Position numbers and translations under genes: made by a program. Below the pieces are notes generated by a model, which saw only the letters and a program-made list of their open reading frames with translations, ran no database searches and had not been told where the DNA came from. This document shows positions 2,224-19,370 of a stretch of DNA of 64,000 bases, one piece after another (the stretch's first letter is position 1; each line of letters begins with the position of its first letter). Location: assembly GCA_049241565.1 (NCBI GenBank), contig JBMLQL010000064.1:8506-72505 (forward strand). Reading direction: 5' to 3'. This DNA is from Bacteriovoracaceae bacterium. Lineage in GTDB: Bacteria; Bdellovibrionota; Bacteriovoracia; Bacteriovoracales; Bacteriovoracaceae.

Positions 2224-5083
2224 TCGTAAAATAGGTTTTAATCGATTCACAGGCCTCTTTCAGAGGCAAGTGTGAAATCTGATAGGGCTCCATCAATTTA
2301 ATGAATGACTTAAATGTATTTCCTTTCCATTTCTTCACGCGATTATCAATCACTAAAATGGCGCCATGATCACTCTCTGTTCGCAAGAGGCGTCCGAATT
2401 TTTGATGAAGGGAGCGAGTTCGGTTCGCGAGGAAATAATCCGTAAACTCATTACTAAATTTAAATTCAAAAAAATCTCGACGTTTCTGAATCACAAGATC
2501 TTGGCGAAGATCAGGAATTTTATCGACCACAATAAATTGTAATTTCTCTCCAGGAATATCGATTCCTTCTCCAAAAGTTTCCATTCCAATCAAAATCGCC
2601 GCCTCTTCCTTTTTGAATTCTTCCACTACATTCTTACCAAGTCCTTGGATAAAAACAGGAATGCGGCCTTCATATTTTTTGAGAAGAAGATCAGCCGCCA
2701 TATCAAATCTCAATCTCGAAGAGAAAAGAAGCAGAGTTCTTCCTCCAAGAGTGTCAATCACTGGAGCAATTCCTTCTAGAAGGTCTGGCACAAACATCGG
2801 ATCACTTAAGTTTCGAGTGTCTGAACTTAAATAAACCTTACTCTTATTTTTATAATCGTAAACTGCATCTAAAAATAGTCCCGACTTAAAACGCTTATCT
2901 GACGGCAGATAAGTATACCCCGTCATCCACTCCACCCCTTGAAATCCAGCATCACCAGCGGCATTGGCCAGAGTGGCAGAAGTAAACACTACAGAGTGAG
3001 AAGGTGTGAGGAGTTCATCAAAAATTTTTCTTCCCACATCAATGGGTGAAGAAGACATAGTATAACCATCATTTTCTGAATACTGAAGAACGCCAACCCA
3101 GTCTTTAGGAGCATCGATATAATGCTTAAAGGCTTCACAAAGTTTTTCTAGTTGCCCAAACATCGATTCAAAAACGGCCCAGGCCTTAATCTTATTTTTA
3201 TCTTCTTTAAGGTCTTTAATTTCCCAACGAGAAATAAAAGGAAAATAAAGAGTGAAGAGTTCAGAGAAAATAAACTCCAGACTCTTAATATGATTTAAAA
3301 TCGCTGTGGCCAGGACATCCTGAGTTCCCCCATCTTTTGGCAGTGGCAGCTCATTCATATAGGCCGGTGTATAATTTGGAAGCTTCTTAAACCAAGACTC
3401 AATAATCTGAGGCAAAGAGGCAAAATGATCTCTGGCCATATTTGTATTAGATGTCGTTTGCTGACGAAGTCGGGCCACGGTGTCTTCCACTTTAAATTCA
3501 TCTTCCATGGAATTGAGAAGATAAATAAGCGCTCCCATCCCCTGAGGTAGGGCCTTAAAAAAGATTTCAAGATTTTTCTGAGTCACCTCAATAGAGAAGG
3601 CCTTAGTCCCTTCTGATTCAATTTTATGGGCCTCATCCACCACTACATATTCTGGACGTGGAAGTGAGCGCGGCCAATGAAGAAGAAGCGCATGATTGCC
3701 GACAATAAGATTGGCCTCTTTGGCTTCTCTAAGACCTTGGACATAAGAGCACTGATTCACAAAAGGACAATTCTGCCCGGCGCAGGCGCGGTAATCCACG
3801 GCAATTTCATTTTCTTTCTCTGAAATTTCAGGGATCAATTTCTTTAGGATAAAAGGGATTTGATCGCGCGTAGATTTGCGATCATAGCTGGCACGAGAAT
3901 TATGAAAAAAGAACATCTCATAATAAGCTTTTGTATAAACAGCTCCAAGCTGAAAAGTTAGAGTGGCCTGCTCTTCATTCTCGCGGAAAAGAAGTTCACA
4001 AAGGTGATTACTTGATCCCACCAATCGAACCACTTTAAATTGATCCGCCTCAAGATTTAAAAGTTTTCTCAATTGAGGAATATCTTTTTGAATGGCCTGA
4101 TCTTGAAGAGTTTTTGTTCCCGTGGCCATGAGCACAGTTCGTTTTTCTTTAAGAGAGAACAACGCCGATGGGAGCAAATACCCCATGGTTTTCCCAGTTC
4201 CTGTCGGGGCCTGAACCAGAGAGTGGATGCCGTTTTTAAATGACTGACCCACACGCAACGCTAACTGCTCTTGGGCCTCACGGTGTTTATAGTGTGGAAG
4301 GATTTTTTTTACATTCGCTTCATCACGAAGAATATGTTGAATATTTTGTCCGTTAAACTCTTGAGAGAAATCAACTTTCACCGAACTTTGCTCTTCAGTG
4401 ACTGGACGAAGAGAGTCTTTATACTTTTTATAGGCCTCTTTGAGAGGAAAATCGATGGCCGCGGCGACTTCATCCAACTCATCCACATCAAGAGCAAAGA
4501 AGTGCTTAAACCAAAATTCGTCAGGGAATTCACGCATCTCCTCAGAAAGCTTTACTCTAAACTCACGGTCCTGGTGAGACATATAAGTCGCCACCAACAT
4601 GGCCTTTAAAAGATCACGAGAATCGGCCAGACCACGGTGCTCTTCTTTCTCAGCAATCTGTAGATGATTCATAATCACTTCAAGATTGAGCGTCGAAAAC
4701 TCAGGAAAGAGTAATCCAAAAAATAAAATAGAATCCTGATAAGTCTCGCGATAGGTTGAGCTTTTTTCTACTTTATCAAAGTATTTTTTTAAAAAGCTCT
4801 CTTCAAAGCCTGCATTATGGGCCACCAAAGAGTGCTTCTCTAGCTCTAAAAGATCATGCTCCACTTTTTCCCAAACTGGGGCCTTCATCACTTGATCATT
4901 AGTAATCCCAGTTAATTTTGTAATGAAAGGAGAAACAGGAAATTCTGAGCGCACCAGTGACGAGAAAGTCTTAATCAGTTTAGTACCTTCAAATTGGTAA
5001 AAACCAAGATCGATAATGGCATCATTTCCAGGATTTATTCCAGTGGTTTCAATATCAATGACGGCCCAGTGACCTAACGACAT
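2216..5083 (-). CDS. dinG: DinG-family ATP-dependent helicase with an N-terminal DnaQ-like 3'-5' exonuclease domain
   Basis: Exonuclease motifs are VIDIETTG, VAHNAGFEESFL and HRGLADSRDLL. Walker A is APTGTGKT and the DEAH box is VVDEAHK. A four-Cys pattern C-X71-C-X4-C-X5-C is present. ATG 5083 is preceded by AAGGTA; TTG 5101 is the alternative start. Confidence 0.85.
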   Translation of the reverse strand: MSLGHWAVIDIETTGINPGNDAIIDLGFYQFEGTKLIKTFSSLVRSEFPVSPFITKLTGITNDQVMKAPVWEKVEHDLLELEKHSLVAHNAGFEESFLKKYFDKVEKSSTYRETYQDSILFFGLLFPEFSTLNLEVIMNHLQIAEKEEHRGLADSRDLLKAMLVATYMSHQDREFRVKLSEEMREFPDEFWFKHFFALDVDELDEVAAAIDFPLKEAYKKYKDSLRPVTEEQSSVKVDFSQEFNGQNIQHILRDEANVKKILPHYKHREAQEQLALRVGQSFKNGIHSLVQAPTGTGKTMGYLLPSALFSLKEKRTVLMATGTKTLQDQAIQKDIPQLRKLLNLEADQFKVVRLVGSSNHLCELLFRENEEQATLTFQLGAVYTKAYYEMFFFHNSRASYDRKSTRDQIPFILKKLIPEISEKENEIAVDYRACAGQNCPFVNQCSYVQGLREAKEANLIVGNHALLLHWPRSLPRPEYVVVDEAHKIESEGTKAFSIEVTQKNLEIFFKALPQGMGALIYLLNSMEDEFKVEDTVARLRQQTTSNTNMARDHFASLPQIIESWFKKLPNYTPAYMNELPLPKDGGTQDVLATAILNHIKSLEFIFSELFTLYFPFISRWEIKDLKEDKNKIKAWAVFESMFGQLEKLCEAFKHYIDAPKDWVGVLQYSENDGYTMSSSPIDVGRKIFDELLTPSHSVVFTSATLANAAGDAGFQGVEWMTGYTYLPSDKRFKSGLFLDAVYDYKNKSKVYLSSDTRNLSDPMFVPDLLEGIAPVIDTLGGRTLLLFSSRLRFDMAADLLLKKYEGRIPVFIQGLGKNVVEEFKKEEAAILIGMETFGEGIDIPGEKLQFIVVDKIPDLRQDLVIQKRRDFFEFKFSNEFTDYFLANRTRSLHQKFGRLLRTESDHGAILVIDNRVKKWKGNTFKSFIKLMEPYQISHLPLKEACESIKTYFTTN

Positions 5084-5182
5084 GGTGTTACCTTTTTGCA
5101 ATGTGACAAGTAAGACGTCTAAGATTAAAAAAAGTGCAGACCTTAGTCAATTATGCTACCTTGGGCCAAACGAGGATTTTAT

Positions 5183-5578
5183 ATGAGTAAATGGTTAATG
5201 CAGAGTCAATCTCTCATCATCGTGGTGATGATGATTATCGGGATTGTTGTTCATCGTCGTCGCTCTCTTCATGTAAAAATCATGAGTTCGGTTATTATTT
5301 GGGATATTTTATTGATTCTCCAAGTGGAATTGGGTCGAAAAGCGATCATGAAGGCCTCTCAGGCCATGACCAATCCTGCTCTTTTAAATATTCATGTTTC
5401 TATCGCTGTCTCAACAGTTCTGCTTTATATTGTGATGGTTATTACGGGAAGAAAGGTTTTGGCCGGTCAGTCAGAATTATTGCCACAGCATAAACGAATC
5501 GGATACATCACCTTTGTCATGAGATTATTAACTTTTGCAACGAGCTTTTTTGCCGTTGTTCCGGATGAGGCCGTATGA
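5183..5578 (+). CDS. small integral membrane protein, about 4 TM segments, family uncertain
   Basis: Hydrophobic segments run throughout. GAGGA lies upstream of ATG 5183. The stop overlaps the bolA-like start in an ATGA. Confidence 0.55.
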   Translation: MSKWLMQSQSLIIVVMMIIGIVVHRRRSLHVKIMSSVIIWDILLILQVELGRKAIMKASQAMTNPALLNIHVSIAVSTVLLYIVMVITGRKVLAGQSELLPQHKRIGYITFVMRLLTFATSFFAVVPDEAV

Positions 5579-5826
5579 GCGGATTTGAATGGTTAGAAGA
5601 CTTAATTAAAAAAGAAATTCCTGATGCCCATATTGAAGTCACGGATCTCACTGGAACCAGAGACCATCTTGGTATCCTCGTGGCCAGTGATATTTTCAAA
5701 GGAAAGCTACTTATAGATCAGCATCAAATTTTGATGAATATTCTTAAGGAAGAACTTAAGCAGCGTATTCATGCAGTCAAACTTCAAACATTAACGAAAG
5801 AAAAATTCGAGCAAACCAAAGGATAA
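5575..5826 (+). CDS. BolA/IbaG-family protein
   Basis: The 83-aa protein has a BolA-like pattern (IEVTDLTG..DHLGILVASDIFKGK..IDQHQ) and sits directly upstream of a monothiol glutaredoxin, the classical pairing. Confidence 0.8.
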   Translation: MSGFEWLEDLIKKEIPDAHIEVTDLTGTRDHLGILVASDIFKGKLLIDQHQILMNILKEELKQRIHAVKLQTLTKEKFEQTKG

Positions 5827-5829
5827 GTC

Positions 5830-6207
5830 ATGTCTAATCCATTCAACGTCATCAACAACTCTGTAGAAGAAATTGAAGTCACTAATAAAGAGATTGAGCT
5901 TAAAGAACAAATCGAAACTCTTCTAAAATCAGGGACAGTAGTTCTTTTTATGAAAGGAAATGCTGATTTTCCTCAGTGCGGATTCTCTGCCAATTCGGTA
6001 GCTATTCTTAAGCACCTTACAGTGCCCTTCAAAACATTTAATATTTTAAACGATCCTGAAATTCGCCAAGGCCTAAAAGAATATTCTAACTGGCCAACTT
6101 ATCCACAACTTTATGTGAATGGTAAGCTCATTGGTGGAAACGATATCATCACGGAGATGTATCAATCAGGTGACCTCCAAGAGTATCTTAAAGAAGCTCT
6201 TAAATAG
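5830..6207 (+). CDS. grxD: monothiol glutaredoxin (Grx4 type)
   Basis: Contains VVLFMKGNADFPQCGFS (the CGFS active site) and WPTYPQLYVNGKLIGG. Confidence 0.9.
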   Translation: MSNPFNVINNSVEEIEVTNKEIELKEQIETLLKSGTVVLFMKGNADFPQCGFSANSVAILKHLTVPFKTFNILNDPEIRQGLKEYSNWPTYPQLYVNGKLIGGNDIITEMYQSGDLQEYLKEALK

Positions 6208-6213
6208 AGAGAT

Positions 6214-7431
6214 ATGAACCAGATCATTGGTAAACTCATTAAAGATAAACCTGTTCACCTTTGGGGAGCAGGAATCTCTGGTCTGGTTCTCGCCTACTAT
6301 CTCAAAAAAGCTGGTTTCCAAGTCTCTCTCTTTGAGAAATCTTCTCAAACTGGTGGGAAGATCGGCACCAAACAAACGGCCTGGGGCCCCATTGAAACTG
6401 CCGCCAATGCTCTTTTTCTCAGTCCTGATGCTCTGGAACTTATCGACGAGCTTAAGCTCACACCAAAACCATCCGCTTTAAAACTTAAAAGACATCTCTA
6501 TTTGAATGGAAAGTTTTGCTCTCCTCTCTCCTTCAAATTAATGGCGAGAGTCATCTTAGGGTGGCGAAAAAAAATACCGCCTCAAGAACACCCTACCGTT
6601 GAAGATTTTCTTCTTCCTTTCTTTAGCCGTGATCTAATTGACCATCTTGTCTCCCCTTCTCTTGGAGGCATTTACGCAACTGAGGCCCGTGGTCTTGATA
6701 TGGAAAGTCTTTTCCCAGAAGAATTTAAGGCCAAGACCTATGGTGAATTTCTTTTAAATATAAAAAAACGTCTTCAGAAGAATCGAGGAATGCGGCTTAA
6801 AGGCTCAGTCAGTTTTGAAGGAGGCATGCAAAAACTAATTGATGCCCTCACTGATTCACTGAAAGAGAATATTCATCTCAATTATCATGAACCATTTAGA
6901 CTTCAAGACAATACGATCCTTTGTACCGATGCCCTCGTGGCCAGTGAACTTCTAAGCGGAACTGATTTTTCAAATCCTTTAAAAAAAATTCAGTACGCTC
7001 CTCTTTCTACCACCACTATTTATCTCAGAAAAAAAATAAAAAAACTTGAAAACTCTTTTGGTGTCCTCATCCCGAGAGACCAAGGACTTCACTCTATTGG
7101 AATCCTGAGTAATAAAGATATTTTCCCTTTTAATTATAAAGATCTTTCCAGTTACACCTTCATCTCTCCTGAAATCCACGACCTAGAGGGAAAAATTCTT
7201 TCTGATCTGGAGCTTCTTGCTCCAGAGATAAAACAGAGTGATCGAGTTTTAGTCGAAACTAAACTTTGGCCTGCGGCACTTCCAATTTATAATAAAAAGA
7301 GAAAACTTGCAGTGAATGAACTTCATCAAATTGCCGATAAGCAAGCTGGAGTCATTCTCTTCGGAAATTATGTGGCCGGCATCTCTCTTCGAGAAATGAT
7401 TACTGCCGCTAAAAATTTTGCATCTCAATAA
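6214..7431 (+). CDS. hemY: FAD-dependent protoporphyrinogen/coproporphyrinogen oxidase-like protein
   Basis: N-terminal dinucleotide fold WGAGISGLVLAYYLKKAGFQVSLFEKSSQTGGKI and C-terminal ILFGNYVAGISLREMI, both typical of HemY/PPO. At 405 aa it is somewhat short for the family. Confidence 0.65.
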   Translation: MNQIIGKLIKDKPVHLWGAGISGLVLAYYLKKAGFQVSLFEKSSQTGGKIGTKQTAWGPIETAANALFLSPDALELIDELKLTPKPSALKLKRHLYLNGKFCSPLSFKLMARVILGWRKKIPPQEHPTVEDFLLPFFSRDLIDHLVSPSLGGIYATEARGLDMESLFPEEFKAKTYGEFLLNIKKRLQKNRGMRLKGSVSFEGGMQKLIDALTDSLKENIHLNYHEPFRLQDNTILCTDALVASELLSGTDFSNPLKKIQYAPLSTTTIYLRKKIKKLENSFGVLIPRDQGLHSIGILSNKDIFPFNYKDLSSYTFISPEIHDLEGKILSDLELLAPEIKQSDRVLVETKLWPAALPIYNKKRKLAVNELHQIADKQAGVILFGNYVAGISLREMITAAKNFASQ

Positions 7432-7440
7432 GAGGTTCCC

Positions 7441-8268
7441 ATGTCTAAAACAACTGATTTTCCTTATCTTCATGGCTTTACAGAAAAAGAGCAAACCCGT
7501 CTTCGTACTCAAGCCGCTTTCGCTGAGCATACTATTTTTCAGAATATCAATTTTAACGATGTGAAAAACATCCTAGAAGTTGGTTGTGGCGTTGGAGCTC
7601 AAACAGAAATCATGCTCAGACGTTTTCCTAAAGTGCACGTCACAGGAATTGATCTCTCCGATCCTCAACTCAAAGCCGCTGAGTCTTATTTGAATACTGT
7701 CCCTTACGCCAAAGGAAGATTTGATCTCAAAAAAATGAGTGCAGACAACCTCTCTTTTGAGGCCGGCAGTTTTGATGGCGCCTATTTATGCTGGGTTCTA
7801 GAGCATGTTCCTGAACCTGCAAGAGTCTTAAGTGAAGTTCGACGTGTTCTTCGACCAGGTGCAGAGATTGTTGTGAACGAAGTAATGAATCACTCTTTCT
7901 TTCTTGATCCGTACTCACCTCATGTTTGGAAATATTGGATGGCCTTTAATGATTATCAATACGATAAGGCCGGTGATCCTTTTGTTGGTGTCAAACTTGG
8001 AAATCTACTCACACAGGTGGGCTATCAAAACGTTCGAACAGAAATTAAAACATGGCATCTAGATAATCGCTCTCCGGCCAAACGCAAAGAGACAATTCTA
8101 TTCTGGACAGAATTAATGCTCAGTGCAGCTGAAGCGTTATTAAAAGAAAATTATGTCGATGAAGAAACAGTGAAAAAGACTCAGGAAGAATTACATCAAG
8201 TAGCTAATGATCCGAATGCTGTGTTCTTTTTCTCCTTTATGCAGGCGAAAGCGTCTGTTTTTTACTGA
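7441..8268 (+). CDS. class I SAM-dependent methyltransferase
   Basis: Motif I is ILEVGCGVGAQT. Acidic post-I residue and a Methyltransf_11-like layout. Confidence 0.8.
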   Translation: MSKTTDFPYLHGFTEKEQTRLRTQAAFAEHTIFQNINFNDVKNILEVGCGVGAQTEIMLRRFPKVHVTGIDLSDPQLKAAESYLNTVPYAKGRFDLKKMSADNLSFEAGSFDGAYLCWVLEHVPEPARVLSEVRRVLRPGAEIVVNEVMNHSFFLDPYSPHVWKYWMAFNDYQYDKAGDPFVGVKLGNLLTQVGYQNVRTEIKTWHLDNRSPAKRKETILFWTELMLSAAEALLKENYVDEETVKKTQEELHQVANDPNAVFFFSFMQAKASVFY

Positions 8269-8288: not shown

Positions 8289-9974
8289 CTAGTTTAGCTC
8301 TTCATCATGAATAAGATCAGAAAGTTTCATCAGAGCATTCATTCTTCCGTTACCGTCTGAGATAAATTCTACTTTCTCAAGACCAAGGCCTTTAAGTTCT
8401 GGGTAACGAAGATCAAGAATATCTTTTCCTCTCATTGGATTAAGTTGCTTGCGAATTGTGTTCATCACTTTCTTTTTAAGACGTGGAACATTTTGGATTG
8501 TACTGATGAGCCCAACTTCTGGACGACCTTTTAAAAGCGTATCGTTAGAAGTATCAGCATCATTAAGATGAATGATGATGACTGGTAATCCTTCATGCTT
8601 CTCTACGCGAACTGAAACTTTAAGAACTAGTGGGAAGTTGATATTTTTAGCACCGATAATGAATCCTTCTACTTTACTTGGTCTGTAAACCACATCCATA
8701 TAAAGCGTCCCGGCACTACCACGCTCATCAAGTCTCATGAATACTTTTTTAGGTCCTAGAGTCACACCGGCTTCTTTGAGCATTGAATCCCAGAGCCCTG
8801 CATCGTATGTGGCCACTAGAAGCTTATTCACATAATCTTCAGAAACACTGGCAACGATATTTGTATCACCCTGGCCCATGATATCTTTCATCTCTAGAAT
8901 AGATTGCCCATGAAGTCTTTTATTAAGACGAGTCAGAGTCTCTTTTGTTTTCTTTTGGTGAACACAGGCTTTCTTGTTTTTCTCGAAATTCTCTTTTGTA
9001 CAAAAATCTCCGGGGAGATTGATTTCGACATTGTTAAGGTCAAGTGTGCTGGTAATATCATCAATTTTAATCTGACTTGAAATAATTGGATTATTGATCC
9101 AATACTCTTTATTAATTTTTACTTTTTCAGCAGCTTTAAGAATTGTTTCAGCTCCACCCTTTTTAAAAGATTCTGCTGTCTGAGCAAAAAGAAGCGTTTT
9201 AAGCTGAGTTTCGCGAGAACGTATAAGAGTCTCTACTTTTTTAACAGGAATCTGAAGAGTTTTATTACCGATTCGAACTGCAAGATCAGGAATGATAATA
9301 TCTTCAAAGGTTAGTGAAACCTTGTCGCGATTTTTATCTAAGAATTCACCAAGGTCTTTGAAAGATGATTCCATAATTTTAAAAGAAAAATTCTCTGAAT
9401 CTTCTTTGATTTTGATCGCGGCAAAGAATCCAAGAAAGTCTTTATCTTCTGCAATAATATGAGGTTTGATAATTTCGATTCTCACCACTGGAATTCCCTG
9501 CCCACCTTTCCCAGGAATTTCTAAAGAAAGAACAAGTTTATCTGCCTTCACATCAACTTTTGACGCTAAGAAATCCGAAGCAATGACAAGACCATCTGCT
9601 TCTTTACGAGTGGTCTTAAGCCCCATCTTGAATTGCTCTACATCATATGAAAGACCTTCAATAGAAACTTTTGTTGTCCCTTGGATAAGATTGAGTCCAA
9701 TCACGTTTCCAATATCATTAATAAGAATTTTTGAGTCTTTGCTTAAATAGTCTGAAACCACCAAATCAGAAATCTCAATGGGAGCATCAAGTTTATTTTT
9801 AAACGGATCTTCATGGCCAAAGTTTTTTAGAAGGCGTCTGACTTTAAGAACGAGCAACTGACTCCAGTCATGATCGAGTGTAGAATCCACAAGAATGTCA
9901 GGTGACTGAAATTTCGCCTGAGAAACCATAGGGAGAGAAAGAATCAGAATAAGAGCAAGTATCAACTTTTTCAT
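8289..9974 (-). CDS. secreted protein, paralog of the upstream gene; possible BPI/TULIP-like lipid-binding protein
   Basis: Signal peptide MKKLILALILILSLPMVSQA. Only an 11-nt gap separates it from the upstream gene. C-terminal half motifs are shared with 9986..11839 (see findings). Confidence 0.7.
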   Translation of the reverse strand: MKKLILALILILSLPMVSQAKFQSPDILVDSTLDHDWSQLLVLKVRRLLKNFGHEDPFKNKLDAPIEISDLVVSDYLSKDSKILINDIGNVIGLNLIQGTTKVSIEGLSYDVEQFKMGLKTTRKEADGLVIASDFLASKVDVKADKLVLSLEIPGKGGQGIPVVRIEIIKPHIIAEDKDFLGFFAAIKIKEDSENFSFKIMESSFKDLGEFLDKNRDKVSLTFEDIIIPDLAVRIGNKTLQIPVKKVETLIRSRETQLKTLLFAQTAESFKKGGAETILKAAEKVKINKEYWINNPIISSQIKIDDITSTLDLNNVEINLPGDFCTKENFEKNKKACVHQKKTKETLTRLNKRLHGQSILEMKDIMGQGDTNIVASVSEDYVNKLLVATYDAGLWDSMLKEAGVTLGPKKVFMRLDERGSAGTLYMDVVYRPSKVEGFIIGAKNINFPLVLKVSVRVEKHEGLPVIIIHLNDADTSNDTLLKGRPEVGLISTIQNVPRLKKKVMNTIRKQLNPMRGKDILDLRYPELKGLGLEKVEFISDGNGRMNALMKLSDLIHDEELN

Positions 9975-9985
9975 GGATTTCCCTG

Positions 9986-11839
9986 CTATTTTCTAACGTT
10001 TAGTTGATCAAAATTGATATCGTTAATATTGACACCTAAAATCAAATAACCTGAATCCCAAACAGTAAGTATCTTTGGAACAAATTGAACACCTGACTGG
10101 TTAAGGAAAGATGAAAGATCAATAACATAATCTTTATCAACTGAGTCTTTAAAGGCATCTTTAAGTTGTGAGATCACAGCATCACGAACAACTTCTGTGG
10201 CCTTTGGAACGTTTGTGGCATAATTATAATTGTTTTTAAGGATGTTATTTGAAGCAAATGGTGAATTCACTCTCGCCTTAAGCACAAGATTTTTTGCTCT
10301 GTCATAACTAAGCTTAGGCACGATTTCTAATTGAAGTGGGAAATAGATAATTGAGTTATTATTATTTCTCTCAAGCCAAGCACCAATTTTATTTTTGATC
10401 CACGCCATTGTTCCATTAGAGGCCACTTGTTTTAAGTGAACTTCAACATTCGCAATAATATAGATCTTGCTAATGTCTTGGTGATCTTTTGATGAAAAAT
10501 GAACTTTGACATTTTTGATATAAAAGCCTTTTGTCGGTGCATAGCGATCAAAAAGAGCTTGAAATAATTTATTCTGAGACGCGAGATCAAAAGCCGCATT
10601 TAAAACGGGCTCTGAAATTGCCAGTGTGACATCGCTATGGCGGTATGATGAAAGATCAAGATCTGGAAGTGGTCTGTTACTGTTAGCCACACGGTTCACC
10701 ACTTTCATCGTTTTATTATTTAATGAAAATTCTATATTCCCTGCCATCTCGATATCTTTAGCTGAAGGAGTTGTAACTCCTACCACATCCATTTTTACTT
10801 TTGCTGAATGAACGACTTTGGCAATTTCTTTTAACACGTCTTTTATAGGATCAGACTTTCCTGGTAGCGTGAGTGGCTGATTATTAAATTGAGGAAGATG
10901 ATAACGTGGGATATGCACGTATGTGTTATCAACAACTGCTCTCGGGTAGAGGTCTTGGTAGTCTAGTTCACGCACACTTGGTGTCGGTCTTTGATAATTA
11001 AGAACTGTTACACTTGTACGAAGAGACTCTTTCATTAAATATGAGTTTACGAGTTCGGCCATGTCTGAACTCATAAAGTCTGCAGCAAAATCAATAAGCT
11101 CTTGCGCCAAGAAATCCTTACGCTTGATTAGCTCACCTCTTAGACGAGAGGTATCAAGCTCTGTTTCCTGATTGTTAATTGATATATAAATTGGTGGAAC
11201 GATCACATCGCCGAAGCTAATGGCAAGCTTAGGGCCATTTTTCGCTTTAAGATTCGTTGTAATACCTAAAAGCTGAACTTTAGCGATATCATCCTTAGTC
11301 TTTACTCTGAATATCGCATTCAGACGGACAATTCCTTTAAGACCGATATTAAGATTTTTAATCGTGGCCTTCAGTCCTGAACCACAACGCTTGGTCTTTG
11401 TTTTTGTCTCACAAAGAGAAAGATTGGCCGAGCTTACACTTAGTGTAGGAACATTAACTGAGACTTGAACATCAAACCCGTCTTTACTTTGTTTAACGAT
11501 TTTTGAGTTCACTGACTTCTCGTCAACTTTTCCTTTAATCACAATAGGTGCTGCTTCTAGATAAAAAAGAAGATCTTTTTTAAGATTAAGATTTGAGATT
11601 TCATTCAAAAGAGGAACAATAGGGTTGGCCAAAAGATCTTTCGCCTTAATTTTAAAGGTATAAAGGTCTTTAGGGATCGAATAAGAAGTTCCCTTCTTTC
11701 CCCCGGATCCGTATTTAACGGCCATCTCCATGGTCTTTACTAGGCCTTTATCAGACACTCGAACAGCCAGCTGCTCTTGCGCTAGCAATTGAAATGAACC
11801 AAATAAAAGCGTAATCGTGAGCATTGCCCTAGACATCAT
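9986..11839 (-). CDS. secreted protein with BPI/LBP-like N-terminal signature
   Basis: The start is trimmed to ATGATG at 11839, which is preceded by GGGAGA. This gives the signal peptide MMSRAMLTITLLFGSFQLLAQ followed by LAVRVSDKGL. The track's 41-codon N-terminal extension has no SD. Confidence 0.7.
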   Translation of the reverse strand: MMSRAMLTITLLFGSFQLLAQEQLAVRVSDKGLVKTMEMAVKYGSGGKKGTSYSIPKDLYTFKIKAKDLLANPIVPLLNEISNLNLKKDLLFYLEAAPIVIKGKVDEKSVNSKIVKQSKDGFDVQVSVNVPTLSVSSANLSLCETKTKTKRCGSGLKATIKNLNIGLKGIVRLNAIFRVKTKDDIAKVQLLGITTNLKAKNGPKLAISFGDVIVPPIYISINNQETELDTSRLRGELIKRKDFLAQELIDFAADFMSSDMAELVNSYLMKESLRTSVTVLNYQRPTPSVRELDYQDLYPRAVVDNTYVHIPRYHLPQFNNQPLTLPGKSDPIKDVLKEIAKVVHSAKVKMDVVGVTTPSAKDIEMAGNIEFSLNNKTMKVVNRVANSNRPLPDLDLSSYRHSDVTLAISEPVLNAAFDLASQNKLFQALFDRYAPTKGFYIKNVKVHFSSKDHQDISKIYIIANVEVHLKQVASNGTMAWIKNKIGAWLERNNNNSIIYFPLQLEIVPKLSYDRAKNLVLKARVNSPFASNNILKNNYNYATNVPKATEVVRDAVISQLKDAFKDSVDKDYVIDLSSFLNQSGVQFVPKILTVWDSGYLILGVNINDINFDQLNVRK

Positions 11840-11970
11840 AGTTTCTCCCATTAATAGGGTTTTAAAGTGCAAAAGGGGGGCCAGATCAAGATCAGAGGTT
11901 TCAGGGACCTGGGAATACATGAGCTGTCTAATCTTTTGACGGCCTATGAAAAAAATGTCCAAATTATTGG

Positions 11971-12756
11971 ATGAAAAATAAAATCGTTTGGATCACTGGA
12001 GCTTCCTCTGGAATCGGCCTAGGCCTTTTCCACTACCTTAACCAGCGTGGAATAAAGACTATTATCTCCTCTCGAGACGTTAAAAAACTAGAAGAAATCA
12101 AGTCCACATCAAAGCATCCTGAATTAGTGGGGGTGGTCTCGGTTGATTTAGAGAAATTTGAGACTCTGGAAAGCTCTACTCAAGCGGCCCTGGCCTTTTT
12201 TGGAAAAATCGATGTACTGATTAATAATGGTGGGATCTCTCAGCGTGATCTGGTGGTGAATACCAGCTTTGAAGTGGATCAGCGCCTGATGAATGTAAAC
12301 TATCTTGGGACAGTTAAACTGACTAAGCACCTACTCCCACATTTTATCAAACAGCGTTCGGGAGATTTTATCACTGTGACCTCACTCGTTGGAAAATTTG
12401 GAACTCCTTACCGCTCAAGTTATTCTGCTTCTAAGCATGCTCTTCACGGGTTTTTTGATAGCCTTCGTGCAGAAGTCTCTGAGAGTGGTATTAAGGTCAT
12501 GCTCGTTTGCCCTGGTTTTATCAAAACAAATATTTCAATCAATGCTCTTACTGGCTCAGGAAAGAAGCTCGGAGAGATGGATGATGCTCAGGCCAATGGT
12601 ATGAATGTTGAGATTTTTGCTGAAAAACTTTTTAAGGCCTATGAGGTAGGTAAAGAAGAAGTGTGTATTGGAGGAAAAGAAACCTTTGGTGTCCTTCTAA
12701 AAAGATTTGCTCCAACTTATTTCTCGAAGATGATTGCGAAGGCAAAAGTGAGATGA
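11971..12756 (+). CDS. short-chain dehydrogenase/reductase (SDR)
   Basis: Contains TGASSGIG, NNGG and the catalytic YSASK. Confidence 0.85.
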   Translation: MKNKIVWITGASSGIGLGLFHYLNQRGIKTIISSRDVKKLEEIKSTSKHPELVGVVSVDLEKFETLESSTQAALAFFGKIDVLINNGGISQRDLVVNTSFEVDQRLMNVNYLGTVKLTKHLLPHFIKQRSGDFITVTSLVGKFGTPYRSSYSASKHALHGFFDSLRAEVSESGIKVMLVCPGFIKTNISINALTGSGKKLGEMDDAQANGMNVEIFAEKLFKAYEVGKEEVCIGGKETFGVLLKRFAPTYFSKMIAKAKVR

Positions 12757-13716
12757 TTATTTATTCTCAAAAGCGTAGAGATAGCTTTGTTTGATCTGAT
12801 TCATCAAAGCATCATCTTTTTTCTTCGCAAGAATTTCCCATTGATTGAAGCGGCCAATCCACTTAAAAAGATCATCCTGCTTCCAAATTTTGGCCGCAGA
12901 CATAATGTCTTTATCGTAATTGCTGAGTCGGGCCTTCCCTGCGAGATAACCAGTATCAGCAATTTTCACTAAATGAGACTGCATAAATCCAAAGAAAAAT
13001 CTCAATCGATCAAATTCGAGATTGAGCTCTAAAATTTTCTCGAAGAATTCAACAAGCTTCTTTTTTCCAAAAATCTGTGCCAGAAGAAATTGATCTAATC
13101 TCTCACGGCTCACGATCTCTTGGGTCTCTTTTAACGAGATCTCTTTATGGTCAGGAAAACTGATCTTGATGGATTGAGCGGCTTGATAAAGAATATCAAA
13201 ATTGCCTTCAAGAGACTCAAGAAGATATTGCTTACTTTCAAAACTCAGTGGGATTTTAAAATAGAAACAAATAAAATCTAAAAGCTTTTGTGTTTCCCAA
13301 AATCTTGGCGGCTCCACTTGGCAATGATTAAGATTTCCCTTCTTTACAAGTTTTTTTAGTCCTGCTGAATCTTGATCGAAACAAAGAACAACAAGACGTC
13401 CACCTAAATCAAAATTCTCAGAGAGCATATAATCAATCGAAGCTGCAGGAATAGTCTCCGGGCGATGAATGATATAACTCTCACCCGGACCAAAAAGACT
13501 GAGTCCTTGAAACTCAGTTTCCAGCCAATCCACAGTAAGGTCTTCACCAACTTTATGTAGAAATTTTTTATTATCTGTATGTGAGAGAAGAGTATCTTTA
13601 ACAATGCGCAAACTTTGCGAATCAAAAGTTTGAAGAATAAAAAGTCCTTCAGCTTCTTGCCAAGTATTAAGAGGATAAGAATTAAAGAAATCCCAAATCT
13701 GCCATTTAGAATGCAT
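12757..13716 (-). CDS. holA: DNA polymerase III delta subunit (probable)
   Basis: A 319-aa protein immediately downstream of lptE and overlapping it by 11 nt, matching the conserved lptE-holA order in proteobacteria. The sequence itself is only weakly diagnostic by eye. Confidence 0.6.
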   Translation of the reverse strand: MHSKWQIWDFFNSYPLNTWQEAEGLFILQTFDSQSLRIVKDTLLSHTDNKKFLHKVGEDLTVDWLETEFQGLSLFGPGESYIIHRPETIPAASIDYMLSENFDLGGRLVVLCFDQDSAGLKKLVKKGNLNHCQVEPPRFWETQKLLDFICFYFKIPLSFESKQYLLESLEGNFDILYQAAQSIKISFPDHKEISLKETQEIVSRERLDQFLLAQIFGKKKLVEFFEKILELNLEFDRLRFFFGFMQSHLVKIADTGYLAGKARLSNYDKDIMSAAKIWKQDDLFKWIGRFNQWEILAKKKDDALMNQIKQSYLYAFENK

Positions 13717-14359
13717 ACATGATCATCTCTTTCACTGACTGGGCCACTTGTTCGGCCATGACTTTCACTGATTTTTTCAAAGCACCTTTATTTTGTGTTC
13801 CAATCACTTTTACCGCTTCTTCATCGAAAATTTCACGGTTATAAGAACTCTCTACCGGGATGAGCTCATTAAAAATAATTCGATCATTGGTTTGGGCCAT
13901 TTCTCCCAGACCTGAGCGAAGTAATTCAAGCTCATCTTCTGATGGGCGCTTGATCACAATAATTTGTAAATAAAGCTGAACGCTGGTTGTTCCTGGAATA
14001 TAAAATTCCTTTCTCTTGTCCCCTATGGCCTTAGGAGCTGAATCTTGCGCTACACGTAAGTTTTGTGCTCTCAGAGTCTCTCTTAGCTTTTCAGGAGATT
14101 TCACGATCCCGAGCATGACCGCGTCAGTACTATTGTCAAAACCACTTTTCACCTTAAGTGAGGGAAAACTCATCATCATGGCGTAAACTTCACGAGAAAA
14201 TTCAGCACCAACATGAGGTAAAGTAGAATAATTGTAAAACGTGGGAATAGAGACAGACTGAATCCCATACTGTGATAACGGATTATCATGCTGGGAAAAG
14301 CGATAACCGGCACATGAACTGAGGCAAAAACAGAGTAGAATTAGGTAAAACTTTGTCAT
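13706..14359 (-). CDS. lptE: LPS-assembly lipoprotein LptE-like
   Basis: Lipobox LSSCAGYRF (E. coli LptE begins its mature part CGWHLR), appropriate size, and a position upstream of holA. Confidence 0.6.
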   Translation of the reverse strand: MTKFYLILLCFCLSSCAGYRFSQHDNPLSQYGIQSVSIPTFYNYSTLPHVGAEFSREVYAMMMSFPSLKVKSGFDNSTDAVMLGIVKSPEKLRETLRAQNLRVAQDSAPKAIGDKRKEFYIPGTTSVQLYLQIIVIKRPSEDELELLRSGLGEMAQTNDRIIFNELIPVESSYNREIFDEEAVKVIGTQNKGALKKSVKVMAEQVAQSVKEMIMYAF

Positions 14360-14886: not shown

Positions 14887-15422
14887 ATCAGATTTTCATT
14901 TTGAGAATAGACCTTAAAACGTGTACACAAAGACTCGAGCGTTTTAAGTGTTTTTTCATCTGCTCGAAGTGAGAGCCAAGCTTCTCCTGAGGGAGAAAGG
15001 GTGTTCTGAATCAAATGAAGAAGAATAGAGAGATTATCCTTAGTCCATGTTCGGCATATCTGCTTGTTAAGATTTGGTGAGAGTCGTCCCTCACCTTCAT
15101 AAAAATAAGGCGGATTAGAAAGAATCAGGTCAAACTTTTTACTAAAATGAACTTCTGAGAAAGGAGCGATGATAATCTCGGCTTTCATCTTAAAAAGTTC
15201 GAGATTGTCTTGAAGATAAGGAAGAAATTCTTCTTGGGCCTCAACTAAAGTGAGTTCATGACTTTGCCCCAGGCAGAACTCAATACCTAAAACACCACAC
15301 CCCGCCCCTAAATCGAGCACTGATTCTGGAGAAAAGTTCAGATGAGTTTTAACAAAATGGATAAGCTTTGTTGAGTCTTCGTTAAATCGGTAGAAGTCAG
15401 GTTGTTTATAGTCCATCTTCAT
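14865..15422 (-). CDS. SAM-dependent methyltransferase with an NPPY motif (N6-adenine/HemK-like class)
   Basis: Contains VLDLGAGCGVLGIE and ILSNPPYF. It overlaps the upstream gene by 17 nt, suggesting an operon. Confidence 0.7.
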   Translation of the reverse strand: MKMDYKQPDFYRFNEDSTKLIHFVKTHLNFSPESVLDLGAGCGVLGIEFCLGQSHELTLVEAQEEFLPYLQDNLELFKMKAEIIIAPFSEVHFSKKFDLILSNPPYFYEGEGRLSPNLNKQICRTWTKDNLSILLHLIQNTLSPSGEAWLSLRADEKTLKTLESLCTRFKVYSQNENLIYVCVWA

Positions 15423-17190
15423 AAGACATTATCTTTTTAACCATCTCTTCGTTAATATTACCCATTTCAATCAAGTGAAATAATGAAATCCACCAATAAG
15501 ATTCATCCTGAAAAAGCTTTATATAAAGCTGTCTTTTGAGTTTAATTTCTGAGAGCCCCTTGCTTTGATAGAAAGTCTCAAGCACCGGATCTTCATGGGC
15601 CATAAATTGAAAATAGAGCTGACTCTCCGTTGACGGATCTTCGAAATAAGGACTTAGGATGTGAACTTTTTCATTCTTAGGCAGCTGATAAAACTCATCA
15701 AAAAAATACCAATACCAAGGAAAATCTTTAGAAGCTCGATTAAGAACATCTTTACGAATCCATTCCCTTCTTTTTTTTGAGCTTCCCATCTTATAGCGAA
15801 GATACCAGGCGAAATCACCTGTTCTTTTTTGATAAACTTTTAGTTTTATTTTTTCGAGCAATTGATCATTATCAAAATACTGCTCGGCCACTTCTCGAAG
15901 ATTTTCATCATTAAAAAAATCAAACATATATTTTGAGAAAAACTGAAAATTTGTTCTATCAGCGGGATGCTTTGAAAGTCGTTCAAAAATTTTATCCATC
16001 CGAAGAGAAATGGCATCTGACCATATATTCTTCTCGTAAGGATATTTACTCCAGTAAATAAAAGGTGATGTTTTATAGATCATGGCCAGAAGCAAGTCAG
16101 ATTGGGCCACGTTACCCAAGAGAAGATAGAGGTAACTTTGAAGAATTCTTTCAGGCAAATGAGTCTCATCAAGATCATTAATAATACTGACGATCTTTAC
16201 CTTCTGGTCTGGAGCGGTAATAAGATTAAACCCTGAATTGAGAAGATTATCTAAAAAGGCGAGTTGCTCAATTTGTTTCGCCGTTGGACTCACTCTTTTT
16301 TTCTGTCCCTGCTCTTTAAGCCAGCGTTTGACAGGATGGCCAGCCTCCAGAGGAAGAACACAATCCCTCACTCTCTTAAGAAAGCTCTCATTATGCTGAT
16401 CCTGAGGATAAAGAATAATACCAAGCTGAGTGACTTCATCATTAAGCTTAGCACAGTCCAGAGTCTCTGTTTTCATCACAGAGATAATCCGTAGCCCCTC
16501 TAGGCTTAAAAGTGGTCGAAAAACAATATTATCAATTTCAACAGTCTGATCTAAGAAAGGCTTTTTTTTTTCCACTTCTGGCGAAGTCTGAGCATGAGCT
16601 GAAGGAATAAATTCAACAGCAGATAGAGAAGTCATGATCGTCTTTCTGAAATAAATCAATAATAACAATAGGACGAAGGTGAAAATCCCAAAGTACTTAA
16701 TAAAGCTATGATCTTTTTTAACGAGAACTTTCGTTGATGATTTCTTAACAATCTTAGAAGTTGTTATTTTTTTTTTGTTCTGACCAAGGTCATGAACTGG
16801 GACATGCTGATGAACAATCTCTGGCCCCTTCTCTGGTTCAGGATCATCAATCACTGGTGGAGGGGTATCATCTTGAAGGTCTTTCAAATTAAGAGATTTT
16901 CCTACAAGAGTCACATCATCCTCAGGTCTTTCTGGTACTCTATGCGAGCTCTCATCACTTGTGAGAACATCTTTGGCTTCACTGATAGGATTAAAAGTCT
17001 GAGACTTATTACCTAAAAGATATTTTTCGATAAGATCTTTTTCACGAATGAAAAACCAAAATCCATTGGCCGAACAAACTTCATCATCACCTTTGATTGA
17101 ACCATTCTTATAAAGTTCAATCACCTTGTCTTTTGAGACCGGCCCCAAGATATGATTTGATTTTGTTCTGATCAACCAGTTTTTATTCAT
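15406..17190 (-). CDS. GYF_2-domain membrane protein of unknown function
   Basis: The N-terminus WLIRTKSNHILGPVSKDKVIELYKNGSIKGDDEVCSANGFWFFIRE is GYF_2-like. A Lys/Pro-rich linker and one TM (FGIFTFVLLLLLIYF) follow, then a roughly 400-aa Trp/Tyr-rich domain. It lies 3 nt downstream of the MCE gene. Confidence 0.6.
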   Translation of the reverse strand: MNKNWLIRTKSNHILGPVSKDKVIELYKNGSIKGDDEVCSANGFWFFIREKDLIEKYLLGNKSQTFNPISEAKDVLTSDESSHRVPERPEDDVTLVGKSLNLKDLQDDTPPPVIDDPEPEKGPEIVHQHVPVHDLGQNKKKITTSKIVKKSSTKVLVKKDHSFIKYFGIFTFVLLLLLIYFRKTIMTSLSAVEFIPSAHAQTSPEVEKKKPFLDQTVEIDNIVFRPLLSLEGLRIISVMKTETLDCAKLNDEVTQLGIILYPQDQHNESFLKRVRDCVLPLEAGHPVKRWLKEQGQKKRVSPTAKQIEQLAFLDNLLNSGFNLITAPDQKVKIVSIINDLDETHLPERILQSYLYLLLGNVAQSDLLLAMIYKTSPFIYWSKYPYEKNIWSDAISLRMDKIFERLSKHPADRTNFQFFSKYMFDFFNDENLREVAEQYFDNDQLLEKIKLKVYQKRTGDFAWYLRYKMGSSKKRREWIRKDVLNRASKDFPWYWYFFDEFYQLPKNEKVHILSPYFEDPSTESQLYFQFMAHEDPVLETFYQSKGLSEIKLKRQLYIKLFQDESYWWISLFHLIEMGNINEEMVKKIMSYEDGL

Positions 17191-18573: not shown

Positions 18574-18629
18574 CGAATTTTACTCCATCAAAATTCTAAT
18601 ACTTATCTATTGATCATAACCGATTCCGG

Positions 18630-19370
18630 CTACAACTCAAGAAATCTACGTATGGTCGGATTTTCCGATTTTTTGAATGTTTCCACATCCAAATGCTCAA
18701 CTACTCTCCCTTTCTCTAGGAAGATAATATAGTCTGAGTACTTCAGGGTGGCGTGAATATCATGGGAAATAATAACTGAAGTAAATTGTCGGTCTTCATT
18801 TCTTTTGGCCGTGTCCACAATCAGATCATAAACCACATGGGTAGTAATAGGATCAAGACCTGAAGTGGGCTCATCATAAAGCATGATCTGCGGCTCTAAG
18901 GCCAGAGCACGGGCCAGCCCCACTCTTTTTCTCATCCCTCCAGAAAGTTCAGACGGAAGACGGTAAGCCGCTTCTTTTTGAATTCCAGTGGCGGCCAAGA
19001 GATCAAGTACCTTGGTTTTAATTTCTGGCTCTTTTAATTTTGTAAACTCTCTTAAAGGAAAGGCCACATTCTCAAATGAAGTTAAAAAATCAAACAAGGC
19101 GGCATACTGAAAAACCATCCCAAAGTTTTTTCGAAACTCACGAAGCCCCATATCATGGAGTTCATTAATTTTAGTTCCAAGAACTAAAACATCTCCCTCA
19201 GTCACTTCAGTTAGTCCCATAATGATTTTCATGAGAGTAGACTTCCCGGCCCCTGAAAAACCAAGAATAGTGGTGATTTTTCCGCGATGAATGCCAAAAT
19301 TCAAATCAGAAAGAACTTTTGTCTCTCCGTATGTTTTTTGAACATTTTTAAATTCGATGGCGTAATCCAT
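18630..19370 (-). CDS. mlaF: ABC transporter ATP-binding protein, MlaF-like
   Basis: Walker A GFSGAGKST, signature LSGGMRKRV and Walker B MLYDEPTSGLD. The start overlaps the mlaE stop. Confidence 0.85.
   Translation of the reverse strand: MDYAIEFKNVQKTYGETKVLSDLNFGIHRGKITTILGFSGAGKSTLMKIIMGLTEVTEGDVLVLGTKINELHDMGLREFRKNFGMVFQYAALFDFLTSFENVAFPLREFTKLKEPEIKTKVLDLLAATGIQKEAAYRLPSELSGGMRKRVGLARALALEPQIMLYDEPTSGLDPITTHVVYDLIVDTAKRNEDRQFTSVIISHDIHATLKYSDYIIFLEKGRVVEHLDVETFKKSENPTIRRFLEL

Follow-up and report, generated by a model that had tools for sequence, protein, structure and literature searches.

Two adjacent genes in a 64,000-nucleotide stretch of a Bacteriovoracaceae genome (contig JBMLQL010000064.1, hereafter the window) encode proteins, A and B, that probably constitute an anciently duplicated, co-transcribed, Sec-exported and disulfide-containing pair with a BPI-like double-TULIP fold and a predicted role in lipid binding or transfer. 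Each belongs to a new family that has no name yet; since proteins of this type have recently been described in bacteria, A and B are not a first.

Gene layout, paralogy and distribution

Gene A starts at an ATG at position 11839, with GGGAGA located 6 nt upstream. A longer, TTG-initiated reading frame extends to 11962, whereas the homologues begin at the ATG. A and B are encoded on the same strand exactly 11 nt apart; in three other genomes the two genes are 10 nt apart, 3 nt apart and overlapping by 4 nt, respectively. This tight spacing suggests the co-transcription of both genes, and the operon proposed in the preliminary description was retained. A consensus scan of the region presumed to contain the promoter (11840..11970) retrieved nothing beyond the shuffled expectation, and the promoter was therefore left unassigned. 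By inspection, the two N-termini resemble Sec signal peptides, as described before, and the AlphaFold2 (AF2) models place helices at aa 3-16 of A and aa 2-12 of B. A lipobox cysteine was not seen by eye at either N-terminus. Directly after the putative signal peptide of A, residues Q21, Q23 and R27 are invariant across 39 homologues.

Table 1 Features of the A-B locus (positions in the window)
Feature	Position	Strand	Details
Gene A, predicted exported double-TULIP protein (family A)	9986..11839	(-)	617 aa; net charge +21
Gene B, predicted exported double-TULIP protein (family B)	8289..9974	(-)	561 aa; net charge +2
A-B spacer, 11 nt	9975..9985	(-)	AGGGA ribosome-binding site inside
Putative A signal peptide, aa 1-20	11780..11839	(-)	MMSRAMLTITLLFGSFQLLA followed by QEQ; cleavage between LLA and QEQ, by eye
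A N-terminal TULIP lobe, aa 21-270	11030..11779	(-)	DSSP of model, invariant columns
A hairpin motif preceding helix B, aa 215-231	11147..11197	(-)	VPxIxIVINGQETELDTS; P215, N222, D229
A inter-lobe linker, aa 271-328	10856..11029	(-)	Pro-rich; conserved DNTYV(R/H)P motif
A C-terminal TULIP lobe, aa 329-617	9989..10855	(-)	Conserved AISEPV.N, ERNNNN and IYFP motifs
Putative B signal peptide, aa 1-20	9915..9974	(-)	MKKLILALILILSLPMVSQA followed by KFQ; cleavage between SQA and KFQ, by eye
B N-terminal TULIP lobe, aa 21-285	9120..9914	(-)	DSSP, N-lobe hhalign
B hairpin motif, aa 229-243	9246..9290	(-)	IPxVSLKVGNKT; P229, G236-N237, basic K234/K238
B central sheet and C-terminal TULIP lobe, aa 286-561	8292..9119	(-)	Motifs SISEDYVNKLL..YDAGLW and SDG.GRMNA
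A / SDR gene intergenic region, divergent; presumed A-B promoter region	11840..11970	(.)	Gene layout

Pairwise BLASTP detected no significant similarity between A and B (E 0.36). In profile-profile comparison with hhalign, the alignments of families A and B matched with E 2.9e-6 across 488 columns, and an enriched B profile matched A with E 6e-16 (probability 98.6%, 403 columns, both lobes covered), against E 0.12-0.27 for reversed-sequence controls. The enriched-profile alignment recovers both motif pairs from which the preliminary description had proposed paralogy. With smaller alignments of single lobes, the N lobes matched at E 1.7e-7 and the C lobes did not rise above background (E 0.035, the same as the control). 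Judged by these profiles, A and B are anciently duplicated paralogues whose kinship escapes BLASTP.

Family A comprises 131 and family B 82 homologues, and B has 154 representatives among 1.84 billion proteins. Family A occurs in 29 GTDB species, labelled as Bacteriovoracaceae, Halobacteriovoraceae, 'Proteobacteria' or a mislabelled Bdellovibrio MAG; the two named families are groups with known predatory members. A survey of conservation and synteny, as suggested in the preliminary description, showed that the A-B pair occupies a single syntenic locus in Bacteriovoracaceae and Halobacteriovoraceae, and the order A-then-B is kept even in a pair that is less than 20% identical. Of the loci with enough sequence, all but five have B directly downstream of A. 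Since these five species have A alone at the locus, A can exist without a neighbouring B; three of the five retain the same acidic hairpin. A far more divergent lineage encodes a syntenic pair of 661 and 723 aa, overlapping by 4 nt, which matches the A and B profiles with E 1.8e-31 and 1.3e-33, respectively. In the deepest lineage the A-like protein has a net charge of -32, and the charge is thus not conserved.

The flanking genes are housekeeping genes (holA-like, DciA, glutaredoxin, BolA and DinG; a match to protoporphyrinogen oxidase was weak and below the cutoff) and offer no hint of predation. The preliminary description had drawn attention to an MCE lipid-transport operon nearby. The Mla/MCE genes are located about 5 kb from A-B, past the holA-like, DciA and methyltransferase genes, and do not adjoin the pair in Peredibacter; a functional link is therefore unsupported, and the proximity is conserved housekeeping synteny and no operonic link.

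Predicted fold and motifs

AF2 models were built on alignments of 38-39 sequences and reached a pLDDT of 73.9 and a pTM of 0.62 for A and of 81.9 and 0.74 for B. In Foldseek searches against the PDB, the best matches of A were CETP (2e-12) and BPI (1.4e-11), and those of B were CETP (1.4e-12), BPI (2.4e-11) and LBP (1.2e-9), with Foldseek probability 1.00 and both lobes aligned. CETP, BPI and LBP were followed in rank by OrfX3 and P47 (E 8e-7 to 5e-5, weaker than to BPI/CETP) and then by BPIFA1, JHBP, Takeout and Der p 7. Every significant, query-covering match of high probability was a TULIP protein, and other entries had probabilities of at most 0.2. Global TM-scores of both models to BPI and CETP were only 0.30-0.48, at an rmsd of about 12 Å. 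As architecture of a double TULIP we considered two tubular lobes, each of helix, curved sheet and helix, set back to back and joined via a central sheet, and an extra N-terminal strand that locks helix A; DSSP and Foldseek revealed the tandem lobes, helix A, the twisted sheet and the long helix B in both models. Hence, both proteins are predicted to have a BPI-like double-TULIP fold, and the two-lobed BPI/LBP/CETP-like character proposed in the preliminary description holds at the fold level for A as well as for B.

The modelled N lobe of A consists of a strand (24-28), helix A (30-44), long curved strands and helix B (231-269). It carries a Lys-rich loop, CETKTKTKRC, with the invariant Cys143 and Cys152. 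At the linker, about 60 residues (aa 269-328) have a pLDDT below 50. The N lobe of B has an extra helix (79-92) and hairpins (219-241) ahead of helix B. Each family has one invariant Cys pair, which in B is Cys325/Cys337 and lies outside the N lobe. The net charge of A is +21 (family A median +14; N lobe +13) versus +2 for B. The N lobe of BPI is cationic as well. The hairpin before helix B carries acidic residues in A (E225, E227) and basic residues in B (K234, K238). Its three motif columns in 39 A homologues hold P (39/39), N (31, and D in 8) and D (36, and N in 2); among 38 B sequences P and G are each invariant (38/38) and the basic positions are K/R in 36/38 and 38/38.

The preliminary description had also compared strings of A and B with signatures of BPI. 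The BPI strings quoted there are genuine BPI sequence (1bp1), whereas their likeness to A or B never exceeded chance in scored tests. In the models, LAVRV plus DKGLVKTMEMAV of A forms the first strand and helix A of the N lobe, and IVASVS plus EDYVNKLLVATYD of B the first strand and helix A of the C lobe; the quoted BPI strings presumably sit at equivalent places. Thus, though the signatures lack statistical support, they appear to fall on structurally equivalent strand and helix elements.

Proposed function and alternative readings

[quoted passage not shown] A and B are most likely cooperating exported lipid-binding or lipid-transfer proteins. A presumed hydrophobic lumen in each protein would sequester lipid acyl chains, and at membranes beyond the predator's cytoplasm both may jointly take lipids out, carry them or pass them on, as experiments have demonstrated for Bdellovibrio TipA. 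The cationic A could dock on anionic membranes or LPS, with the near-neutral B as its partner. More speculatively, the hairpins could link the two proteins end to end through their N lobes to form a four-TULIP tube in which B would stand in for the second TipA protomer. The fullest version of this model, a head-to-head tube of ~25 nm with charge-complementary hairpins that serves as lipid conduit bridging predator and prey or the inner and outer membranes, with A as the membrane- or LPS-docking end and the whole tube as a core device for lipid piracy throughout the Bacteriovoracaceae and Halobacteriovoraceae, is in our opinion unlikely.

[quoted passage not shown] The locus is single-copy and vertically inherited, its housekeeping neighbourhood is conserved throughout the clade, a Sec signal by itself predicts the periplasm, and Mla-type genes occur within the same 15-kb region. 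For such a shuttle a wider spread would be expected than the few representatives in the databases, with named members only in Bacteriovoracaceae and Halobacteriovoraceae, and TipA, the only characterised relative by architecture, is reported to be induced at invasion and secreted into the prey (bioRxiv 10.1101/2025.09.09.675085). It is rather improbable that A and B act as antibacterial effectors that permeabilise membranes or as accessories of toxins, similar to the bactericidal N domain of BPI or to OrfX/P47 of botulinum clusters, rather than as lipid carriers. The strong positive charge of A with its Lys-rich disulfide loop, the significant structural matches to OrfX3 and P47 and the destabilisation of bilayers by TipA in QCM-D (bioRxiv 10.1101/2025.09.09.675085) would fit this activity; yet B is neutral, the deepest lineage does not conserve the charge, there is no toxin gene among the flanking genes, and neither protein has a match to the P47 family of Pfam at E<=10.

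That A and B are true members of the BPI/LBP/CETP sequence families, related by detectable ancestry or recent transfer and dedicated to LPS binding, is very improbable despite their top structural matches. Genuine BPI, LBP and CETP proteins carry both PF01273 and PF02886, the Pfam families that the preliminary description had proposed to search; hmmscan of A and B at E<=10 found neither, and its sole matches, PWI (0.17) and DUF7242 (0.13), were noise. No Pfam or NCBIfam family matched A or B, and no Pfam domain was present among the 131 family A homologues. In hhalign against an alignment of 28 BPI/LBP/CETP sequences the probabilities were 0.1-4.9%; A reached 4.9% and B 0.6%. The former derives from a weak co-linear alignment (A 87-201 with BPI 108-222, E 0.008) that brings the N-lobe Cys regions together. 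The enriched B profile reached E 0.1 against 0.026 for its reversed control, single lobes gave only background, and even a profile with Neff 7.4 scored as the reversed controls. With signatures that are statistically undetectable, A and B therefore stand outside the Pfam LBP_BPI_CETP families. Moreover, the N-domain disulfide Cys135-Cys175 of BPI, with both positions invariant in the BPI/LBP/CETP alignment, spans 40 residues versus only 9 for the N-lobe pair of A, the pair of B is outside the N lobe, and both proteins exceed BPI by 100-150 residues. Equally small is the chance that the TULIP likeness arose in the modelling from long amphipathic strands and helices and conceals another fold and function. 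The shallow alignments, the moderate pLDDT of A and TM-scores below 0.5 would allow for it, but two separately modelled families converged on one architecture and one ranked match list, the B model has a pLDDT of 82 and a pTM of 0.74, the double TULIPs are followed mostly by single-lobe TULIPs with the rest at low probability, and LolA, LptA, AsmA or MCE folds are absent from the Foldseek PDB matches of A and B.

Comparison with known TULIP systems

How predators take up prey lipids and lipid A is still unresolved (bioRxiv 10.1101/2025.09.09.675085). TipA is the only structurally characterised lipid-binding protein of such predators, and the A-B locus adds two unannotated families of TipA-like architecture that lack a Pfam or NCBIfam model. 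Both are defined candidates for lipid handling in Bacteriovoracaceae and Halobacteriovoraceae, and the pair lends itself to testing whether double TULIPs function as end-to-end assemblies. In addition, these bacterial BPI-like proteins could be found only through structure and not through sequence, which bears on where the eukaryotic BPI/LBP/CETP family came from and speaks for building new family models.

[quoted passage not shown] It shares with A and B the signal peptide, a BPI-like double TULIP of ~570-620 aa that is longer than BPI, a predator-linked lineage and a two-gene operon. Its N lobe has a dimerisation helix and a beta-hairpin, with P246, N253 and N260 as hairpin residues (bioRxiv 10.1101/2025.09.09.675085). 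Set against this description, the A and B models have the same kinds of inserts, a further helix that separates strands 1 and 2 as well as a hairpin ahead of helix B, and the conserved Pro, the Asn or Gly and the helix-cap residue, P215-N222-D229 in A and P229-G236/N237-x243 in B, repeat the +7/+14 spacing, with TipA taken from the text of the paper only. Bdellovibrio entries were absent from the Foldseek PDB matches of A and B, and DUF2785, the annotation of TipA, was found neither in A and B nor in 41 remote B-like proteins. The host order differs as well. The operon partner of TipA is the adaptor TipB, a small C2-like beta-sandwich (bioRxiv 10.1101/2025.09.09.675085), whereas the partner of A is a second double TULIP, its paralogue B. 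At the A-B locus no gene for a TipB-like adaptor is present; B is the sole co-oriented neighbour of A, flanked by divergent or convergent enzyme genes. An adaptor-free heteromeric tube would be the counterpart of the TipA homodimer.

The best structural matches, vertebrate BPI/LBP/CETP (1bp1, 1ewf, 4m4d and 2obd), likewise have two lobes with an N-terminal strand and helix A, a Pro-rich inter-lobe linker (as in A), secretion and one disulfide, which in A and B is predicted from the invariant Cys pair. Unlike BPI, A and B are longer by an extra helix and hairpins and differ in disulfide geometry.

Bacterial TULIPs, including P47, OrfX2, YceB, DUF4403, DUF2140 and DUF2993, have been reviewed (Levine 2019, PMC6791001), and in the AFDB clusters of 2023 bacterial proteins such as A0A2D5ZNG0 group with human BPI (PMC10584675). 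Together with the report on TipA, these studies render the claim of new biology in the preliminary description overstated. YceB, DUF4403, DUF2140, DUF2993 and the AFDB BPI cluster resemble A and B as envelope-associated bacterial proteins of TULIP fold; in contrast, YceB is a single-lobe lipoprotein, and at E<=10 neither A nor B matched these four families in Pfam. The clostridial OrfX2, OrfX3 and P47 (8bgm, 6ekt and 5wix) are Gram-positive and linked to neurotoxin clusters, unlike A and B. Similar to A and B, they are bacterial double TULIPs whose genes are neighbouring paralogues within a single cluster, and for OrfX1-OrfX3 a TULIP-TULIP complex has already been crystallised.

The gene pair and the predicted fold of its products

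Genes A (upstream) and B lie adjacent on the minus strand of the window. The longest form of A opens at the first possible TTG; we took the protein as the shorter form because its homologues start at the same ATG, which is preceded by GGGAGA. Both N-termini comprise a basic residue, 12-14 hydrophobic residues and a small-residue site, with cleavage read from the sequence between LLA and QEQ in A and between SQA and KF in B, and inspection of the two termini revealed no lipobox cysteine. A and B are predicted to be exported proteins, which is backed by the single invariant cysteine pair in each family of homologues (C143/C152 in A, C325/C337 in B). A promoter and terminator scan yielded nothing exceeding shuffled expectation, and RNA families were absent from an Rfam search of the window.

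Coordinates of the gene pair and of features discussed in its surroundings
Feature	Position	Strand	Remarks
Gene B	8289-9974	minus	561 aa
A-B spacer		minus	11 nt, contains AGGGA
Gene A, longest form	9986-11962	minus	first possible TTG
Gene A, preferred start	11839	minus	ATG; 617 aa; GGGAGA 6 nt upstream
SDR gene	11971-12756	plus	between A and the holA-like gene
holA-like gene and 217-aa ORF	12757-14359	minus	319-aa holA-like ORF with the overlapping upstream 217-aa ORF
594-aa ORF	15406-17190	minus	3 nt downstream of the MlaD-domain gene
MlaD-domain gene	17194-18573	minus	459 aa
Mla-type genes	17194-20158		MlaD-domain protein, ABC ATPase, MlaE
477-aa ORF	21271-22704	minus	between shikimate kinase and alanine racemase genes

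The AF2 models of A and B (mean pLDDT 73.9 and 81.9, pTM 0.62 and 0.74) are two-lobed, each lobe combining two helices, A and the long helix B, with a short strand and a long, curved antiparallel sheet. Residues 269-328 of A form a Pro-rich linker of low confidence; the B model is free of low-confidence segments. Top Foldseek matches were CETP (2obd; A 2e-12, B 1.4e-12), BPI (A 1.4e-11 with 1bp1, B 2.4e-11 with 1ewf) and, for B, LBP (4m4d, 1.2e-9; not among the matches listed for A). OrfX3 (8bgm; A 7.6e-7, B 6.4e-6) and P47 (A 8.2e-6 with 6ekt, B 4.6e-5 with 5wix) were also retrieved. Beyond the double TULIPs, the matches were mostly single-lobe TULIPs (BPIFA1, juvenile-hormone-binding protein, Takeout, Der p 7), and entries belonging to neither group had probabilities of 0.2 or less. 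Lipid carriers of the LolA, LptA, AsmA or MCE type were considered and rejected, such folds being missing from the structural matches of A and B. Global TM-scores were low for both models (0.30-0.48), presumably because these two-lobed proteins are elongated, have 100-150 additional residues and differ at the hinge; TipA, a real bacterial double TULIP from Bdellovibrio bacteriovorus, differs from BPI by a per-domain rmsd of 5.7-5.8 Å (bioRxiv 10.1101/2025.09.09.675085). The two-lobed BPI-type fold proposed in the preliminary description is very probably that of A and B. This assignment is a prediction, yet it is backed by the convergence of two families modelled separately.

Membership in the BPI/LBP/CETP families of Pfam was rejected, since the scans were empty and hhalign remained at control level. 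Neither protein had a family match in Pfam or NCBIfam at E<=10, and the two family profiles retrieved nothing when searched against PDB sequences. A link to a named family, e.g. DUF2785, was also sought among 41 remote B-like proteins, none of which carries a Pfam domain. The BPI sequence was checked against 1bp1, LBP and CETP were taken from PDB alignments, and the reference alignment, initially of 3 sequences, comprised 28 annotated BPI, LBP and CETP proteins carrying PF01273 and PF02886. Against the 28 sequences, hhalign probabilities were 4.9% for A and 0.6% for B; with either reference version and with whole, per-lobe or 137-sequence B profiles, the results were always at the level of the reversed controls. 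The missing signal does not disprove distant common ancestry with BPI, because BPI's own two lobes likewise lack profile similarity to one another in hhalign. The N-terminal and C-domain 'signatures' previously put forward do occur in both proteins and in BPI, and the models place them on the first strand and helix A of a lobe; the BPI strings presumably sit at the matching place. As sequence matches, however, they found no statistical support.

Paralogy, distribution and inheritance

The proposed paralogy of A and B was significant by profile-profile comparison where pairwise BLASTP failed (E 0.36). Family alignments of 39 A and 38 B homologues matched in hhalign with E 2.9e-6 over 488 columns (reversed-sequence controls 0.12-0.14). 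An enriched B profile (137 sequences, Neff 7.4), to which full-length matches from exhaustively searching 1.84 billion representatives with HMMER had been added, matched family A with a probability of 98.6% and E 6e-16 over 403 columns across both lobes (control 0.27). In this alignment AISEPVLNAAFDLASQNKLFQ lies opposite ASVSEDYVNKLLVATYDAGLWD and IYFPLQLEIV opposite INFPLVLKVS, which recovers exactly the two motif pairings noticed earlier. The relatedness had been placed in the C-terminal halves; the enriched match does span both lobes, but in comparisons of the smaller profiles it was the N lobes (E 1.7e-7), not the C lobes, that gave the statistically independent signal. Internal duplication (N lobe versus C lobe) was not detected in A or B.

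No curated model exists for either family. Family A is present in 29 GTDB species genomes, labelled Bacteriovoracaceae, Halobacteriovoraceae, Bacteriovorax, Halobacteriovorax, Peredibacter or unclassified 'Proteobacteria', with one exception, a MAG named Bdellovibrio sp., which is closest to the window (75% identity). The B profile recovered only 154 representatives at E<=1e-3 among 1.84 billion proteins, and the named matches are Bacteriovoracaceae or Halobacteriovoraceae MAGs. A B-like fragment (P0466, MGK0367818.1) on a 3.8-kb contig was deposited as 'Thermoproteota archaeon'; this contig is probably mis-binned, since the B family is otherwise exclusive to these two families.

In related genomes the A-then-B order is kept at one locus, B lying directly downstream of A wherever enough sequence is available, bar five divergent species. 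In these (loci L023, L025, L026, L028 and L030, a subclade) A is directly followed by convergent oxidase or methyltransferase genes. Peredibacter has 10 nt between A and B, and a Bdellovibrionales MAG has 3 nt. Locus L032 (JGI metagenome 3300066692, 4019-8172) carries a syntenic pair, overlapping by 4 nt and <20% identical to the window proteins, in which a 661-aa protein matching the A profile (E 1.8e-31) precedes a 723-aa protein matching the B profile (E 1.3e-33). Its flanks are as elsewhere, with DciA, holA-like, amine oxidase, glutaredoxin, BolA, DUF420 and DinG-like helicase genes. Distribution, synteny and the L032 pair together indicate that the A-then-B unit is old and vertically inherited.

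Neighbouring genes

The proximity of an MCE operon had been pointed out. Between the pair and the Mla-type genes lie the SDR gene, the holA-like gene, a 217-aa ORF, DciA, a methyltransferase and the 594-aa ORF, and Mla/MCE genes do not adjoin the pair in Peredibacter. An operonic link was rejected on both grounds; no evidence for a functional link between the pair and the Mla-type genes was seen.

Several neighbours deserve mention in their own right. The MlaD-domain protein of the MlaE/ABC/MlaD-type operon is unusually long, and the 594-aa ORF, without Pfam or NCBIfam match, may be an uncharacterised accessory of the MCE system. Most related loci lack the SDR gene between A and the holA-like gene, which points to a lineage-specific insertion. 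The 319-aa ORF matches holA only weakly and below the cutoff (E 5e-10; 39 bits, cutoff 80) and is overlapped from upstream by the 217-aa ORF, which has no family match. Both recur upstream of A in many related loci, a position that would correspond to that of lptE-holA in other Gram-negatives. The 477-aa ORF has no Pfam match, and its resemblance to response regulators is faint and confined to the N-terminus. In Peredibacter sp. HCB2-198 (CP174607, locus L001, 1-7788), two ~1450-aa proteins with C-terminal Peptidase_S74 are encoded immediately upstream of A; they are fibre/adhesin-like, cf. the chimeric fibre proteins of Bdellovibrio, and imply that the pair's upstream flank is variable and its downstream flank conserved.

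Possible assembly and relation to known bacterial TULIPs

The net charge of the cationic protein A is +21 (+13 in the N lobe, median +14 in its family); B is near neutral at +2, which is also its family median. Cationic charge is not shared by all A-like proteins, as that of L032, the deepest member, is strongly acidic (net -32). In A, conservation peaks at VPxIxIVINGQETELDTS, directly before N-lobe helix B (P215 in 39/39 sequences; position 222, 31 N and 8 D; position 229, 36 D and 2 N). At the aligned position B reads IPxVSLKVGNKT, with P229 and G236 in 38/38 sequences and K/R at 234 and 238. Both models form beta-hairpins at the motif, and in both an additional helix separates the first strand from the second. 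Such inserts constitute the homodimerisation motif of TipA, with conserved P246, N253 at the hairpin tip and N260 capping helix B (bioRxiv 10.1101/2025.09.09.675085); going by the preprint's description of TipA, the +7/+14 spacing of conserved residues is common to both systems. The hairpin is acidic in A (E225, E227) and basic in B. From this likeness and the opposite charges we infer that A and B might join N lobe to N lobe via their hairpins, although direct assembly is only tentatively proposed. Among the five species lacking B at this locus, the A motif is kept in three and shortened in two (L023 and L030, with the different sequence FMDGLVTPIV), with no clear pattern.

Taken together, A and B would be cooperating exported double-TULIP proteins that bind or transfer lipids, in a lineage with known predatory members; a lipid-handling role appears reasonably probable. 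While the fold foreseen in the preliminary description was retained, its sequence-family membership and its novelty were not. Bacterial TULIPs already listed include P47, OrfX2, YceB, DUF4403, DUF2140 and DUF2993 (Levine 2019, PMC6791001), bacterial structures clustering with human BPI have been reported (Barrio-Hernandez 2023, PMC10584675), and the structure of TipA from B. bacteriovorus has been solved (Caulton et al., bioRxiv 10.1101/2025.09.09.675085). The OrfX/P47 clusters (PDB 8bgm) moreover provide a precedent for tandem TULIP paralogues and TULIP-TULIP complexes. In view of these precedents we count the pair as an addition to a known protein type. It differs from TipA and its adaptor TipB in that a TipB-like gene is absent and the operon partner is a second double TULIP.
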